From a bacterium (GTDB taxonomy: Bacteria; Bdellovibrionota_C; UBA2361; RFPC01), in NCBI GenBank assembly GCA_022763385.1, contig JALEGQ010000174.1, positions 1 through 63,609 of the forward strand: a stretch of 63,609 nucleotides of DNA, written 5' to 3'. A program made the translations under genes and the position numbers. Positions 2,695 through 63,609 of the stretch are shown here, piece after piece (the first letter of the stretch is position 1; each line of letters starts with the position of its first letter). The notes under the pieces are model-generated. The model made no database searches, was not told the origin of the DNA, and was given only the letters and a program-made list of their open reading frames with translations.

Positions 2695-3872
2695 CTCACG
2701 AAGCCTCAACGGTGTTATCTGAATGTGCTCACACTGCTGGTACCTATCGCAAGCGAGACGTTGCTATCGTACGAGGAGAAGGAGTCTGGGTGTATGATGA
2801 AGCGGGGCGGAAGTACCTCGATGCTATCGGAGGGATCGGGGCAAACGTTCTTGGGCACCGACACCCGTATTTTTCAACAGAGCTCAAGAGTCAGATCGAT
2901 CTCACCCTCTCTGTTCCTGAGCTCCTCTGTAACAACACTCGAGCTGAGTATCAGTCAGCACTCCTCTCACTCTTTCCCCCCTGCTATGACCGAGTCTTTC
3001 TCTGTAACGGAGGAGCGGAAGCGAATGAAGCCGCGCTCAAGTTTGCACGGGTGCTCTCACAGAAAACACCGCTTGTTGCTCTCAACTTTGGCTATCACGG
3101 AAAAACATTAGGCGCACTCAGTGTTACTCACAACCCGAAGTACCGAGAGCCGTTTGAGCCGCTCTACCATCCCGTCCACTTTCTTCCCCAGGGGAATATC
3201 GAACGGCTGAATGAGGTCTTCGATGGAGACCCCCCTGCGGCTTTTATCTTTGAGGGAGTTCAGGGAGAAGGCGGTGTTCGAACACCGGAAAGTGAGTACG
3301 TGAAAACAGTTTCTCACCGAGTCCAAGAAGGCGGCGGTTATGTGATCGCTGACGAAGTACAGTGTGGTTTTGGAAGAACTGGAAGGTGGTGGGGATTTGA
3401 GGCCCACGGGGTCGAGCCGGATTTTGTAGTGCTCGGGAAGGCGATCGGAAATGGGGTTCCGCTTTCTGCGGTGGTACTTCATAAACGGGTCGGTCAACTT
3501 CCGCCGCTCGCTCACACCACGACCTTTGGTGGAAATCCGCTCTCCTGCCGAGCTGGACTCGCCACGATTGAGGTGATGAAGCAGGAGAGTCTTGTTGAGC
3601 AGGCGGCACAGCGGGGAGAACAGTTTCGTCACCTCCTCCGTGAAGCTCGTCTTTCGAACGTACGAGAGCTGCGTGGTGAGGGATTGATGATCGGTGTTGA
3701 GCTGAAGGAGCGAGCCGGGAGATATCTCGCTGAGCTCCAGCAGGAGGGGGTACTCGCCTTGCTGGCCGGACCGCGGGTTCTGAGAGCACTCCCTCCGTAC
3801 GTCATCTCAGAAGACGAGATGAACTTCCTTGCTGGACGGTTTATAGAGGTACTTCGGAATGAGAAGAACTGA
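2691..3872 (+). CDS. lysJ: Class-III PLP aminotransferase (LysJ / ArgD, acetylornithine aminotransferase family)
   Basis: 393 aa. DEVQCGFGRTG and LGKAIGNG (PLP lysine) motifs. 4-nt overlap with lysZ. Confidence 0.8.
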   Translation: MTHEASTVLSECAHTAGTYRKRDVAIVRGEGVWVYDEAGRKYLDAIGGIGANVLGHRHPYFSTELKSQIDLTLSVPELLCNNTRAEYQSALLSLFPPCYDRVFLCNGGAEANEAALKFARVLSQKTPLVALNFGYHGKTLGALSVTHNPKYREPFEPLYHPVHFLPQGNIERLNEVFDGDPPAAFIFEGVQGEGGVRTPESEYVKTVSHRVQEGGGYVIADEVQCGFGRTGRWWGFEAHGVEPDFVVLGKAIGNGVPLSAVVLHKRVGQLPPLAHTTTFGGNPLSCRAGLATIEVMKQESLVEQAAQRGEQFRHLLREARLSNVRELRGEGLMIGVELKERAGRYLAELQQEGVLALLAGPRVLRALPPYVISEDEMNFLAGRFIEVLRNEKN

Positions 3873-4968
3873 GCAGGAATCGATCGCTTTTCTGGAGTCG
3901 CTGGTAAGGTGTTTTTCTCCGTCGACGAAAGAAGAAGAGGTCTCCCATCTCGCCGTACAGGAGATGAAGGATATCGGCTTTGCCGAGGCGTGGCGAGATG
4001 AAGTGGGAAACGCCATCGGTATCTGGGGCGAACGAGGACAGCCGACATACTTCCTGGTCGGGCATATCGACACCGTTCCTGGAGAGATTCCAGTCCGGCG
4101 AGAGGAGCTCTCCGGCGAAGAGGTACTTTTTGGCCGCGGCTCGGTCGATGCCAAGGGGTCATTTGCTACCTTCGTCCAGGCGGTCGGTCGTCTTCCCAAG
4201 GATCTTCCGGTGTGTTTTATAGTGGTCGGCGCGGTCGAGGAAGAGGTGGCGAGTTCAAAGGGTGCTCGACACCTCCTGACTCAGTTCGCCGAGCCCGAGG
4301 GGGTCATCATTGGAGAGCCCTCTGGAGGAGATGGTATCACCCTTGGCTACAAGGGGCGCCTGCTCCACGAGCTCTCTGCCAAAAGAGCGATGACCCATAG
4401 CGCTTCTCCCTTTGCGACCATTGGAGACCTTCTCTCTCTCTGGGGGGCGAGGGTGCACACCCTTGCTCGCGAGAGTGCGTCGCCGAAAGCAGGGTTTCGT
4501 TCTCTTGATGCCACCATTCAACAGCTTCAGGTAACGAACGATGGCTTTACGGAAGAGGGGAAGATCCAGTTCGGTTTTCGCATTCCTCCTTCCCTCACTC
4601 CTGATGAGGTAGAGCGCCACCTCCGAGAAGAGTTCCCACGGTGGAGAGCGCAGTTTCCTGCTGATGAGACTCAAGAGCTCGAGATACATTTTTTTCAACG
4701 AGAAGTTGCCGCCGAATATTCCAAGAAATCCTCTCTCGCGGGAGCCTTCCGAAAAGCGATCCGAAGTCAGGGACTCACTCCCCGACACGTCGTAAAAACC
4801 GGCACCTCCGACATGAACGTCCTCGCCGCCGGGTGGAACTGTCCCATGGTCGCCTACGGCCCCGGCGACTCCGACCTTGATCACACCCCCAACGAGCATC
4901 TCTCCCTTCAGGACTACTGCACCGCCATTCGCGTACTCGAACAGGTGCTCCTCAACCTTTCACCGTGA
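3859..4968 (+). CDS. lysK: M20 metallopeptidase-family deacylase ([LysW]-lysine hydrolase LysK / ArgE-like)
   Basis: 369 aa. VGHIDTVPG, GRGSVDAKG and GAVEEE metal-ligand motifs. Last gene of the cluster. Confidence 0.7.
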   Translation: MRRTEQESIAFLESLVRCFSPSTKEEEVSHLAVQEMKDIGFAEAWRDEVGNAIGIWGERGQPTYFLVGHIDTVPGEIPVRREELSGEEVLFGRGSVDAKGSFATFVQAVGRLPKDLPVCFIVVGAVEEEVASSKGARHLLTQFAEPEGVIIGEPSGGDGITLGYKGRLLHELSAKRAMTHSASPFATIGDLLSLWGARVHTLARESASPKAGFRSLDATIQQLQVTNDGFTEEGKIQFGFRIPPSLTPDEVERHLREEFPRWRAQFPADETQELEIHFFQREVAAEYSKKSSLAGAFRKAIRSQGLTPRHVVKTGTSDMNVLAAGWNCPMVAYGPGDSDLDHTPNEHLSLQDYCTAIRVLEQVLLNLSP

Positions 4969-4980
4969 TCGCTGCGAGCC

Positions 4981-5050
4981 GGATAGAGCGTTCACCAAAA
5001 TCAAACACGTGCGAGTGTTTGAGGCACGAAGTGCCGTTTTTTTTTGGTCA
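4981..5050 (+). repeat. Copy 1 of a conserved ~70-nt intergenic element (GGATAGAGCGTTCACC...GGCAC-GAA-GTGCC-T9)
   Basis: Hand alignment with the reverse complement of 59131-59200 gives about 50 identical positions in the first 58, then a shared T-run and GGT. Confidence 0.8.
5023..5045 (+). terminator. Rho-independent terminator after lysK (part of repeat copy 1)
   Basis: GGCAC-GAA-GTGCC hairpin followed by G and nine T, 55 nt after the lysK stop. Confidence 0.6.
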
Positions 5051-5351
5051 ACGCTCTAATCCCCATAGCCATATCTGCCCGCACTGTAAGGCTGGAAAAC
5101 TGGTGAAGATCCTGGAGTTTCCTCCCTGCTCAGCTTTCCATCCTCCGGGAATCTTTCACTAATTCCCCTCAGCACCCCCAATTACCTGGACTGTCCCGAC
5201 TAGCACCACGCTGAAGAGCAAGGGCAGCGCGGCTTACCCCAACGGGGGTCGAACCGCACTCTTGGAGTGTGATACCATCACGCACAGAATACAGGCTGCT
5301 CCGCTCTCACTGGGTGCGGTCCAACCCTTACATTATAGTGCCAGGTCAGAT

Positions 5352-58222: not shown

Positions 58223-59035
58223 TCAATCCTGCTCTTCTCGTTGATCAGTAGAGTAACTTATGCTGCCCAATGTTACTCGAGCTCCTCCTTCCTTGTCGTA
58301 GAGTTTCGGATTTATCTCTCTATCGAACTGAGAAATGAATTTTCTAGCCTGGGCATGAAATTGTGCTCCTTTCTCAAGAAGCCAGAGCTGAATCTTCGGT
58401 AGGGATTCCATGCAGATATCATCATACGAGGTTCGAATGTGAAGGTGAGGTACTGTGTTACGATCAAAAAGGTTTTCCTCGACACTGAGATAGAGATCTA
58501 GAGCATCATCAGCAAGAAAGGTTAGTCCTCCGGGAATATCGTCTGAGATGGAAAGTGCTCCCTCGTTCAGTTTTACTCCACGTGATGTGCGGGAGACTGC
58601 TTTAACTCTCTCTAGCTCAAAAAGAACGGTGTATGGATTAATATCTGTACTTATCTCATGAACAAGGTGAACGAAATCGCTATCTGAACCTTCATGCTGC
58701 AATATCCGAGGTTTTCCTCCTTTGGTGCAAAATTGTGGGTGGCTTTGCCAGTGGCCCATAATGCGTGCCAGCAAGCTTGCCTGTTTCTCCTCGCATGAGA
58801 TCTCTTTCAACCGCTTTATATCCTTTCTTTGAAGGCCGGTCATGACAGATAGCCGGCTGACGTTGACTGCTTCTTGCTGTCTTCTGAGTTCCTGCTCAGC
58901 AGCACTGGTAAAAGCTTGCTTCGCTGCATCCAGGAATTCCTGAAATCTCAATCCCCGCCGCACACATAATGTCGCCACCGGCTTGATGAGCCTCGGAAGA
59001 AACTCTCCCAATATGTCAGTACCTTCAGGATTCAT
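58223..59035 (-). CDS. DUF6502-like protein
   Basis: 270 aa. N-terminus LIKPVATLCVRRGLRFQEFLDAAKQAF...VSRLSVMTGLQRKDIKRLKE matches the pattern I recall for DUF6502. Confidence 0.5.
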   Translation of the reverse strand: MNPEGTDILGEFLPRLIKPVATLCVRRGLRFQEFLDAAKQAFTSAAEQELRRQQEAVNVSRLSVMTGLQRKDIKRLKEISCEEKQASLLARIMGHWQSHPQFCTKGGKPRILQHEGSDSDFVHLVHEISTDINPYTVLFELERVKAVSRTSRGVKLNEGALSISDDIPGGLTFLADDALDLYLSVEENLFDRNTVPHLHIRTSYDDICMESLPKIQLWLLEKGAQFHAQARKFISQFDREINPKLYDKEGGARVTLGSISYSTDQREEQD

Positions 59036-59080
59036 ACGATGTGTAAATTATCCACTATAATAAATAGCTTGGAAAGCCAA

Positions 59081-59200
59081 CAGCATCCCTTCAGAGGCTC
59101 GATATTTGCCTTCCTTCCGGGGGGGGGCTGCTCACCAAAAAGAACTGCACTTCGTGCTGCAAGCACACGCACATGTTTGATTCTGGTGAACGCTCTAGCC
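59081..59200 (-). repeat. Copy 2 of the intergenic element (70-nt module 59131-59200 inverted relative to copy 1, plus a 42-nt module at 59081-59122)
   Basis: See the alignment to 4981-5050. The 42-nt module matches 62323-62364 at 37/42 positions in direct orientation. Confidence 0.8.
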
Positions 59201-59728: not shown

Positions 59729-61096
59729 GTGAGTGACCTCCTGATGGAAAGAGGAATAGAGAAAATGCTAAGCAGATGCGAGTGTCAAGGAGATAACAGA
59801 GAGTTGTTGGGAGGGCGGACATCGTCTTCTCATTTGAAGTGGGGCGGCCGATTTGGTTTTTATCAGGTCTTGCTCGTCATGGTGATTCTGTCCTGTCTGC
59901 TGAATCAAGGTAAAGCTGAGGAGTTTGAGCATCTGTATGTGAGTGCCGGTGTCAGGGGAGAGCTCATCCAGCAGAATCTTCAGGGGGAGTGTGTTCCTCT
60001 TCAGCTCTCGGCAGATGGTGATGTAGTGCTGCTGGTTACGACCGCCCAGAACTTGACTGACAACGCGCCACCGCTTGGGATGCAGGGGTTCTACCTGTAC
60101 GATGTTCAAACCGAGATGTTCTCTCTCGTGAATCAGACTCCGAGTGGCGAGCCTTTTTCTGACGCAACAACTCTAGCTGCTTCGCTCTCAGCAGATGGAC
60201 AGCGGGTGCTGTTTTCTGTTCGTTCGTATGACCTAGCCACCCCTTCCGAAATGTATCTCTTTGACCTCTCGGTTGGAACGACGCGGCTTCTTCAGTCGGG
60301 CATCGTGGCAAAATCTGTTCGCCTCTCTGCCGATGGTCACTTTGCTGCGTTTTTCTCTCAGGAATCGAAGGGGTCGGATCTATTCTTCCAGATCATGAAC
60401 GTTGATACGGGTGAGATCGTATTCTCTTCATCCGCAATTCGGAGAAACAAGACAAGTGCGCTGTTTGAAATCAGTGATGATTTTTCACGAGCATATATAA
60501 ACTTCCAAAAGTCCTCTCGGCAGATGAAGACCATTTTGTATGATTTTGAGCGACAAACGCGAAGAGCATTTACTCTCAATAGGCGCCGACTGCCCCGGAA
60601 AGTAAGGAGAATTCGGAATTTTACTGGCGGCCTTTTGAATCGTGACGCGCAGAGCAAAATATTCTCTCCGAATACTGTTCTTGGACGTCGGAAGCGAAGA
60701 ATCGGCGTTCGGGGAACTCGGAAGAAGGTTGTACTTCAGAGGCCAGCGGTGGTTTCTCGCTTTTGGCCGTCTCCGTCCGCACAGGTTTCTTCTGATGGAA
60801 GATTTCTTGCGTTTTCTTCGGAGTCCAACACTGTCAATGGTCGCAGTAGTGAACTTGGCTCTGCTCAGCTCGCCGCGTATCGGTTCGATGGGAAGAAGGG
60901 AGTCGTTGAGCAATTTCAACGTTTTAACTCGTATCCGGCATATGCACTCTCCGTGCAATCATCGTTTTTTCCAAGGGAGCATAGTGTTCCGGTACTCTCC
61001 GCCGATGGCTCTACCGCAGCCTACCCCGGAGCATATCTCGCTGACTTTGAGCAACGGGAAGTGTGTTTCGGAATTACCCGTTTCCCGCGAGAGTAG
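59729..61096 (+). CDS. Secreted beta-propeller-like protein with recurring [LS]S[AS]DG (PD40/TolB-like) repeats and a K/R-rich insert
   Basis: 455 aa. LSADGDVVL, LSADGQRVL, LSADGHFAA, SSDGRFLAF and LSADGSTAA. RRRLPRKVRRIRN...GRRKRRIGVRGTRKK. Start uncertain (GTG at 59729 or ATG at 59744). Confidence 0.55.
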   Translation: MSDLLMERGIEKMLSRCECQGDNRELLGGRTSSSHLKWGGRFGFYQVLLVMVILSCLLNQGKAEEFEHLYVSAGVRGELIQQNLQGECVPLQLSADGDVVLLVTTAQNLTDNAPPLGMQGFYLYDVQTEMFSLVNQTPSGEPFSDATTLAASLSADGQRVLFSVRSYDLATPSEMYLFDLSVGTTRLLQSGIVAKSVRLSADGHFAAFFSQESKGSDLFFQIMNVDTGEIVFSSSAIRRNKTSALFEISDDFSRAYINFQKSSRQMKTILYDFERQTRRAFTLNRRRLPRKVRRIRNFTGGLLNRDAQSKIFSPNTVLGRRKRRIGVRGTRKKVVLQRPAVVSRFWPSPSAQVSSDGRFLAFSSESNTVNGRSSELGSAQLAAYRFDGKKGVVEQFQRFNSYPAYALSVQSSFFPREHSVPVLSADGSTAAYPGAYLADFEQREVCFGITRFPRE

Positions 61097-61878: not shown

Positions 61879-62322
61879 GGTGTGTCAGTGGCCCGACCTG
61901 ATCGGAAGTGAGGTTGGTGGAAGATTCATGTCATTTCTACTGGGCCGTGCTAATGCCTCGTCCCTTATGCCTCATAATAGATGTCTCTCCTCGAAAATAA
62001 CTACTCGCACTCGATGCGGGCAAAAACTCGCTTTATCTACGAGCTAAGAAGGGAAACTTAGCAATCGAGAGGTAATGCCGTTGGCGAACCCATGCTTGAT
62101 AGAGCGTTGATGTGAAGAAGTGGCGAGGTGTTCGCTCACAGGCGGATGGCTTTTCTTCGACGTCCTCGACGAGGACGTGAGCAATAGTGGTAGAGGAAAA
62201 TTTCGGCTCGTCTGCGGAGTGTCTCTGAAAAGCCCTCCGCCTGATAGACTCCTTTTCCGACAGAGCCTAGGCTCTGCGCGATTTTTCTCTTTTCTCAATA
62301 GAGACAGCCCCTTTGGGTCTGA

Positions 62323-62390
62323 CAGCATCCTTCCAGAGGCTCGCTATTTGCCTTTCCTCCGGGGCTAGAGAGCCTCCTTCGTTCAGTAGC
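62323..62390 (-). repeat. Copy 3 (shorter, diverged) of the intergenic element
   Basis: CAGCATCCTTCCAGAGGCTCGCTATTTGCCTTTCCTCCGGGG matches 59081-59122 at 37/42 positions. Followed by GCTAGAGAGCC...CTTCGTTCAG, reminiscent of the 70-nt module. Confidence 0.65.
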
Positions 62391-63294: not shown

Positions 63295-63609
63295 TCATCA
63301 ACTCCAAAGTCTTGGTACACTTTGGAAATTCAATGGTTGGTGCACTAGATATTTTCCCTCCGAGGGTTCCGGCCTTCGCCGGAAGAAGTGCCACGCTAGT
63401 CGAACTGATAGGGTGTTCCAAAACTTTAGGGGCGTGGCGATAGTGTTTCGTTATACAAACGATTGTCCATAGTGAAAAAAACTCTGCGACATTGTGCTAG
63501 GGCGTCCAGATCAACCCCAACGTTGCATAAAAATTTGTTCGTAGAGCCACAAGAGTAGTGCAGATTGGGGCTTTGGGCGAGTTTTTAGGGCGAAAGTGTA
63601 CTACACGTA

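Follow-up and report, generated by a model that had tools for sequence, protein, structure and literature searches.

Among the known families of small repeats, the RUP elements of pneumococcus and the Correia elements of Neisseria appear, by analogy, to be the closest to the hairpin elements described here, with RUP as the likely closest precedent. For RUP, a repeat of 107 bp, IS630-Spn1 is believed to provide the mobilising activity in trans (Oggioni & Claverys 1999, as reviewed by Delihas 2008, PMC2229807). The elements from Bdellovibrionota resemble RUP in being small, non-coding, intergenic and present in multiple copies, in having IS630-like inverted repeats with TA termini and TA targets, and in forming a stable stem-loop, and in both cases similarly indirect evidence connects the element with a transposase. 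Unlike RUP, the Bdellovibrionota element, which differs in sequence and in host phylum, is shorter (59 or 77 nt) and consists almost only of its inverted repeats, comes with four interchangeable arm types and a 256-nt composite form, and has its matching insertion sequences in related genomes and not in the same genome.

The Correia (NEMIS) elements are about 107 and 155 bp long, with 24–26-bp inverted repeats and a TA duplication, and effects on transcripts have been reported for them (PMC2229807). The features in common, likened by description only, are the organization of a TA-flanked inverted-repeat MITE, the occurrence of a short form and a long one set apart by an internal insert, the intergenic location and the long hairpin. 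The Correia inverted repeat begins with TATAG and carries an A-run. By contrast, no IHF site or promoter elements were seen in the Bdellovibrionota element, there are about 30 copies of it compared with hundreds, and it has a match among IS630-type termini, whereas no transposase is known for the Correia elements. The REPIN/REP-RAYT systems and BIME mosaics of Proteobacteria (Nunvar et al. 2010, PMC2817692) are similar in being palindromic intergenic mosaics with conserved linkers and lineage-specific expansion, but the Bdellovibrionota hairpins come without a RAYT, and their unit is a 28-nt terminal inverted repeat starting from TA, not a 20–40-nt REP. The Stowaway MITEs of plants, which are derived from Tc1/mariner elements and duplicate TA, share the short inverted repeats and are cross-mobilised by mariner-like transposases at TA, but these elements are eukaryotic, unrelated in sequence and usually longer than the 59- and 77-nt solo forms.

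The elements analysed here are a previously undescribed family of this well-known kind and are probably non-autonomous DNA transposons (MITEs) of the IS630/Tc1-mariner type. They are repeated and dispersed, end in inverted repeats with IS630-like arms, occupy intergenic sites only, and differ in their sites between related species. Together with the flanking TA and the variable copy number among congeners, these properties favour the MITE-like repeat among the several explanations that the original prediction, made from the sequence of a single contig, had offered for three conserved hairpin/T-run blocks.

Hairpin elements of the window and their census

The window, a stretch of 63,609 nt, is contig C101 of a 3.07-Mb MAG (G000) that consists of 228 contigs, has a GC content of 53% and is about 86.5% complete; the relatives searched were 124 genomes of the phylum. 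The sequence comparisons behind the original prediction were reproduced: copy 1 (4981–5050, plus strand) and the reverse complement of 59131–59200 are identical in 50 of the first 58 ungapped positions, with 86% identity over 64–65 nt in BLAST, and a 42-nt module at 59081–59122 recurs in direct orientation at 62323–62364, with 37 of the 42 positions identical. What follows the second module is not a whole shortened and diverged element, as had been thought, and consists only of a short remnant of a hairpin arm. The view of a family of three copies proved far too narrow, given that BLAST and nhmmer detect 31 loci in the genome; the elements are members of a dispersed repeat family, which refutes the special significance attached to the three sites.

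The limits of copy 1 (Table 1) also differ from those originally given, because its ends are inverted repeats (GGATAGAGCGTTCACCAAAA and TTTTGGTCAACGCTCTAATCC) that had been missed, and the whole element is one long hairpin, bounded by TA at 4984–4985 and at 5057–5058. Both arms (4984–5000 and 5042–5058) are of the G type defined below. The element starts 15 nt past the TGA stop codon (4966–4968) of an M20 peptidase (lysK-like) gene (ORF 3859–4968; PF01546), folds as a single strand into a Y shape with a 20-bp stem and two tip hairpins (−38.9 kcal/mol, z = −7.8), and is 89–98% identical to copies on contigs C125, C145, C152 and C47.

Copy 2, with its 5′ end (C-TA) at 59198–59196, has a decayed tip B and a truncated 3′ arm (GGTGAGCAGCC). 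It lies in a head-to-head gap between a DUF6502 gene (58226–59035, minus strand; PF20112) and an ORF on the plus strand (59729–61096), fused to the start of a longer module that includes the first 42-nt block; the fusion is a truncated half of the 256-nt composite described below, with the same junction as at C10:43959/43960. The second 42-nt block is the end of an 82-nt fragment of the same central module. The alternative pairing of the GCAC segment, proposed for both copies, becomes possible in copy 2 only through the decay of its first tip hairpin, and nothing suggests a regulatory switch.

Table 1. Hairpin elements and module fragments in the window (family assignment as putative MITEs)
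Feature	Coordinates	Strand	Basis
Copy 1, 75-nt long-form (Y-shaped) hairpin, putative MITE	4984..5058	+	Sequence, fold, BLAST
Tip hairpin B, TCAAACAC-GTGCGA-GTGTTTGA	5001..5022		Exact 23-mer found 6 times in the genome
Tip hairpin A, GGCAC-GAA-GTGCC and T-run	5023..5045	+	Conserved core of the family
Copy 2, long form, putative MITE	59126..59198	-	86% identical to copy 1
Start of the central module, first 47–49 nt of 138 (CCCCCGGAAGGAAGGCAAATATCGAGCCTCTGAAGGGATGCTGTTGG)	59077..59125	-	nhmmer, E = 6.8e-6, model positions 1–47
Central-module fragment, 82 nt (positions 2–83 of 138)	62283..62364	-	nhmmer, E = 1.5e-15
Hairpin-arm remnant, ~15 nt (CTAGAGAGCCTCCTT, cf. TAGAGCTCCTCACC)	62365..62379	-	Comparison with the intact composite C10:43901-44156

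Chance cannot account for the similarity between the copies, since the core GGCACGAAGTGCC is found at 19 positions of the genome and the arm TAGAGCGTTCACC at 16, where 0.09 occurrences of each would be expected. The commonest form is a near-perfect hairpin of 59 nt, CTAGAGCGTTCACCAAAAATAATGGCAC-GAA-GTGCCGTTGTTTTTGGTGAGGAGCTCTA (−37 kcal/mol, z = −9.8), with inverted-repeat arms of 26–28 bp joined by a short tip, and some copies are 100% identical to one another. The insertion of tip hairpin B in place of ATAAT converts this short form to the 77-nt long form, which is represented by seven copies including both from the window, and hairpin B is the sole tip of one copy (C91:37220). There are four types of arms, G (TAGAGCGTTCACC), T (TATAGCGATCCTC), G′ (TAGAGCTCCTCACC) and T′ (TATATCGCTCCTCT), and these are found in nearly all combinations. 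None of the 59-, 77- and 256-nt forms contains an ORF or has any coding capacity. A HIP1-type cyanobacterial origin, prompted by the GATCGC strings in the elements, was considered and rejected, GCGATCGC being only about 3-fold enriched.

The 42-nt blocks represent one end of a 138-nt inverted-repeat module that, at C10:43901-44156, lies between a G/G′ hairpin and an inverted T/T′ hairpin, the three parts making up the 256-nt composite. Further copies of the composite are interrupted by the ends of contigs C129, C81, C131 and C182. The same architecture is found in congener G118 (L098) and in a Bdellovibrionota MAG of another family from Lake Mendota (G062; L032, 4650–4905), and a partial copy is present in G049. 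The central module in turn ends in imperfect inverted repeats, which contain an IS630-like motif (AGAGCGTTCACC).

Solo arms, which were listed in the search for a parent element in this genome, are present as well. At the start of contig C206, a solo arm of the G type is followed by a junction into C211; the latter contig (4072 nt), whose only encoded protein is longer than 1050 aa, has identical 97-nt ends and is therefore a unit of about 3975 bp that is either circular or repeated in tandem. An apparent arm at the ends of C130 and C79 was discarded as part of a junction with a different, very abundant repeat. Separately from the hairpin family, an unrelated palindromic repeat of about 190 nt, with ends of the form ACCCCAGCGTTGCATAAAAATTTG(TT/CC)CGTAGA... 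and internal-deletion forms of about 85 and 143 nt, occupies the end of the window (63510–63609), which is also the contig end, and more than 60 other contig ends. Of its 79 BLAST matches, 73 are end-anchored, and nearly all lie within about 100–190 nt of a contig end; this repeat evidently fragments the G000 assembly, with the window ending in one of the copies. Together, the hairpin family and this second palindromic repeat help explain the fragmentation of these MAGs.

Termini, insertion sequences and distribution among relatives

Nearly all intact copies of the element have TA at both ends. The base outward of the TA is C or G at 32 of the 49 scorable ends, yielding a C-TA...TA-G context at most ends, although this C or G could belong to the element and not to the target. 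Insertion at TA with TA duplication is described for the IS630 family, and IS630 itself is described as preferring TA within CTAG (Feng & Colloms 2007, PMC2170065, which cites Tenzen & Ohtsubo 1991 for the preference), a preference that the context of the hairpin elements matches.

IS630-family transposases were detected in 23 of the 124 genomes of the phylum, at 30 loci. The locus L129 (in G093) is a complete IS630-family element of 1206 bp with an open frame of 350 codons (289 aa from the first Met), the product of which scores 210 bits against NF033545 (transpos_IS630) and 99 bits against DDE_3; L150 (in G069), likewise complete (1276 bp) and with the inverted repeat GTATAGCGTTTCATTAAAA, scores 208 bits against NF033545, so that both proteins are far above the NCBIfam cut-off for IS630. 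The termini of both elements are of one type with the arms of the hairpin family. Among 152,230 windows from the 30 loci, the best match to the T arm of the hairpin family is the terminus of L129. The inverted repeat of this element, CTATAG(C/T)GTTTTTCAAAAAGATTGAGAC, and the T arm, CTATAGCGATCCTCAAAAATAATGGCAC, are identical in 21 of 28 positions, a degree of similarity that establishes relatedness of type and not mobilisation of the element by these particular transposases; the matching insertion sequences are located in other families of the same order. Several other high-scoring loci (L127, L142, L152 and L150) contain inverted pairs about 0.9–1.25 kb apart around the transposase match; the pattern TATAG(Y)G...CAAAAA is common to these pairs, and the spacing is as expected of IS termini.

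No IS630-family transposase was found in the incomplete MAGs G000, G113, G114, G117, G118 and G062 by searches with PF13358 and by tblastn with two IS630 proteins; if one is prepared to make this assumption, a repeated insertion sequence could have been lost from the highly fragmented assembly of G000.

In genomes of relatives, a covariance model of the short form, built from the alignment of the copies, produced, with matches counted on both strands, 36 matches in G000 itself, 40 in congener G117, 7 in G118, 12 in G113, 4 in G114 and 10 in G062, and none in congener G116, which is 95% complete, or in G115. Thus, beyond the 31 loci in the source genome, related copies are present in five other Bdellovibrionota genomes, and about a dozen further genomes contain weaker relatives, in which the arm pattern is kept and the tips differ. 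The exact 16-mer core is found in only three other genomes among the 124, with one match by chance.

All five loci that could be traced in G117 lack the element there. The joined flanks of 11 loci were compared with six relatives, and only the coding flanks aligned, with 70–86% identity; a base-exact empty site was not found in this comparison, because the congeners are only 72–86% identical in coding DNA and no strain-level relatives were found. A search for the LysK-like protein in metagenome contigs yielded no strain-level relative, the best matches being one with 44% identity over the full length and one local segment with 59%. Examination of the loci by tblastx and manual inspection revealed differences in gene content instead of clean empty sites. 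It is accordingly the termini of the elements that would indicate a TA duplication. One of the loci, C59:19809-19865, contains a 57-nt element wedged between the two stop codons of conserved convergent genes; G116 (L078) and G118 (L079) have at the corresponding position a small gene, lost from G000 or never present in it, whose product of about 100 aa is rich in Cys and His and apparently secreted.

The following scenario can be envisaged for the origin of the copies. An IS630-family transposase acting in trans would bind the arms, with the consensus TA-[G/T]AGCG-[A/T]TC-..-C-AAAAA, excise the element and insert it at a TA, preferably one within CTAG, with duplication of the TA. The copies that survive would be those in harmless sites, namely intergenic DNA, the TA of stop codons and variable regions of lower GC content. 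A G-type arm landing in a stop codon would rebuild the TAG stop and, as a by-product of the whole arrangement, the hairpin with its flanking A- and T-runs would form a terminator-like structure in both directions.

Genomic placement

With the crude gene caller employed, all copies lie outside the predicted gene bodies. About half of them follow the 3′ ends of genes, several being flush with the stop codon, and at least nine are located in head-to-head gaps. Six copies supply, with the terminal TAG of a G-type arm, the stop codon of a neighbouring ORF of 441–1072 codons, as would result if the element had landed in the TA of a stop; the enrichment is modest (6/28 compared with the expected 9%, p = 0.036). 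As an observation in its own right, TAG is the commonest stop codon among the crude gene calls (881 TAG, 736 TGA and 708 TAA), which is unusual for a bacterium with 53% GC.

The copies tend to reside in DNA of lower GC content. Their lower-GC 1-kb flank averages 0.488, compared with 0.519 at other intergenic sites (p = 2.5e-5), and the difference in GC between the two flanks is also larger at the copies (p = 0.012). In the window, the GC content falls from about 0.56 to about 0.46 just past copy 1, and copies 2 and 3 lie in a stretch of 0.45–0.50 beside orphan ORFs without Pfam matches. In G117, a lysK-like gene (62% identical) is directly followed by unrelated genes, with no element, which places copy 1 at a synteny break. 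Hence, the part of the original prediction that located the blocks at junctions between core genes and AT-richer DNA holds with respect to lower GC, both in the window and genome-wide, and to the synteny break at copy 1, but the proposal that the blocks are att remnants finds no support from an integrase or a core site. The placement at junctions fits a TA-targeting element that survives where the DNA is dispensable and richer in AT, and a role of the elements in recombination is also conceivable. A scan for tRNA and tmRNA genes found none.

A terminator scan recognises copy 1 by its sequence criteria on both strands. The plus-strand site, GGCACGAAGTGCC GTTTTTTTTT, combines tip A with a run of nine T and faces the lysK-like gene, and the minus-strand site extends from 5022 to 5001 and continues into TTTTGGTG, combining tip B with TTTTGG. 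In either orientation, the short form carries a U-rich tail. Copy 2 fails the sequence criteria of the scan. Judging from these sequence features, it is plausible that single copies act as terminators, copy 1 downstream of the lysK-like gene being a candidate.

Alternative explanations and implications

Simple MITE biology does not account for the conserved architecture of the composite. There is a small chance that the composite is a functional mobile unit, such as a portable bidirectional terminator or insulator or a mobile non-coding RNA, and that its G-type end (TA-GAGCG) has perhaps been selected for rebuilding the TAG stop. If so, the element could land in stop codons and bring a terminator exactly to the ends of genes, and such elements would mark the boundaries of gene-block exchange.

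It is improbable that the elements are functional RNAs (3′-UTR terminators or small RNAs) maintained by selection, with the repeat structure being secondary. The hairpin and U-run do read as a terminator in both directions, copy 1 is located 15 nt past a stop codon, about half of the copies follow the 3′ ends of genes, and one strand shows two conserved U-G wobble pairs (T-G in DNA). The wobble positions, however, are equally well explained by descent from one master copy, and the copies in head-to-head, promoter-side gaps have no obvious role as terminators. Furthermore, in the alignment of the copies, 80.5% of the cells pair, compared with 78.9% when the 3′ arms are shuffled among the copies, such that the covariation, or compensatory change, is no better than in shuffled controls, and arms have been swapped between copies regardless of pairing. 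When genomes are compared, the arms and the A-run prove to be conserved whereas the tip is variable (for example, GCCAC-TTC-GTGGC in G114), which is the pattern expected of a transposase-binding site; combined with the lack of a pairing excess, this pattern argues for a terminal repeat recognised by a protein and against an RNA under structural selection. In searches of Rfam, the window has no match at the gathering score, and the composite gave only chance-level matches to Rfam 15 (E ≥ 0.15 in a search at E ≤ 10, far below the gathering scores). The number of copies in congeners, from 0 to about 28, also speaks against the RNA function.

Palindromes of the REP/REPIN type, spread by a RAYT (an IS200/IS605-like Y1 HUH transposase) and not by a DDE transposase, appear quite improbable as well. 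Five Y1_Tnp-like genes are present in the genome, in which no DDE transposase was found, and the mosaic with conserved linker modules resembles BIMEs. Yet none of these five genes has the GGCAC-GAA-GTGCC core or the G or T arms within 1.5 kb, the palindromes that flank Y1 genes, where present, are different, and the conserved part of the hairpin family is a 28-nt terminal inverted repeat that starts from TA and matches IS630 termini, not a short REP with a 5′ GTAG-type guide. The repeats of the Y1 kind observed in this genome, for example the palindromes GGTGC-CAC-GCACC at C23:180-271 and 2465-2477 that flank a RAYT-like gene, represent a separate repeat system.

Remnants of att-like site-specific recombination, left by serial integration of low-GC gene islets, are highly improbable: different genes do follow lysK in G117, the C59 element stands where two congeners carry a small gene and the flanks are lower in GC than other intergenic sites, but Pfam searches revealed no integrase or recombinase adjoining the copies in the window, each element is a complete inverted-repeat unit instead of one of two half-sites that bracket an island as direct repeats, many copies lie between conserved genes, and TA-targeting MITEs would be expected in just such places if dispensable DNA of higher AT content is where they persist best.

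With the elements interpreted as MITEs of the IS630 type, the three conserved intergenic blocks of the window and about 30 more in the genome are explained as one mobile family, and their labelling as small RNAs or att sites is avoided. This interpretation also links palindromic repeats of uncultured Bdellovibrionota to a type of transposase, IS630. The elements mark the variable, lower-GC parts of the chromosome, and their hairpins with U-runs, along with the TAG stops, could matter for the boundaries of operons in these predators.
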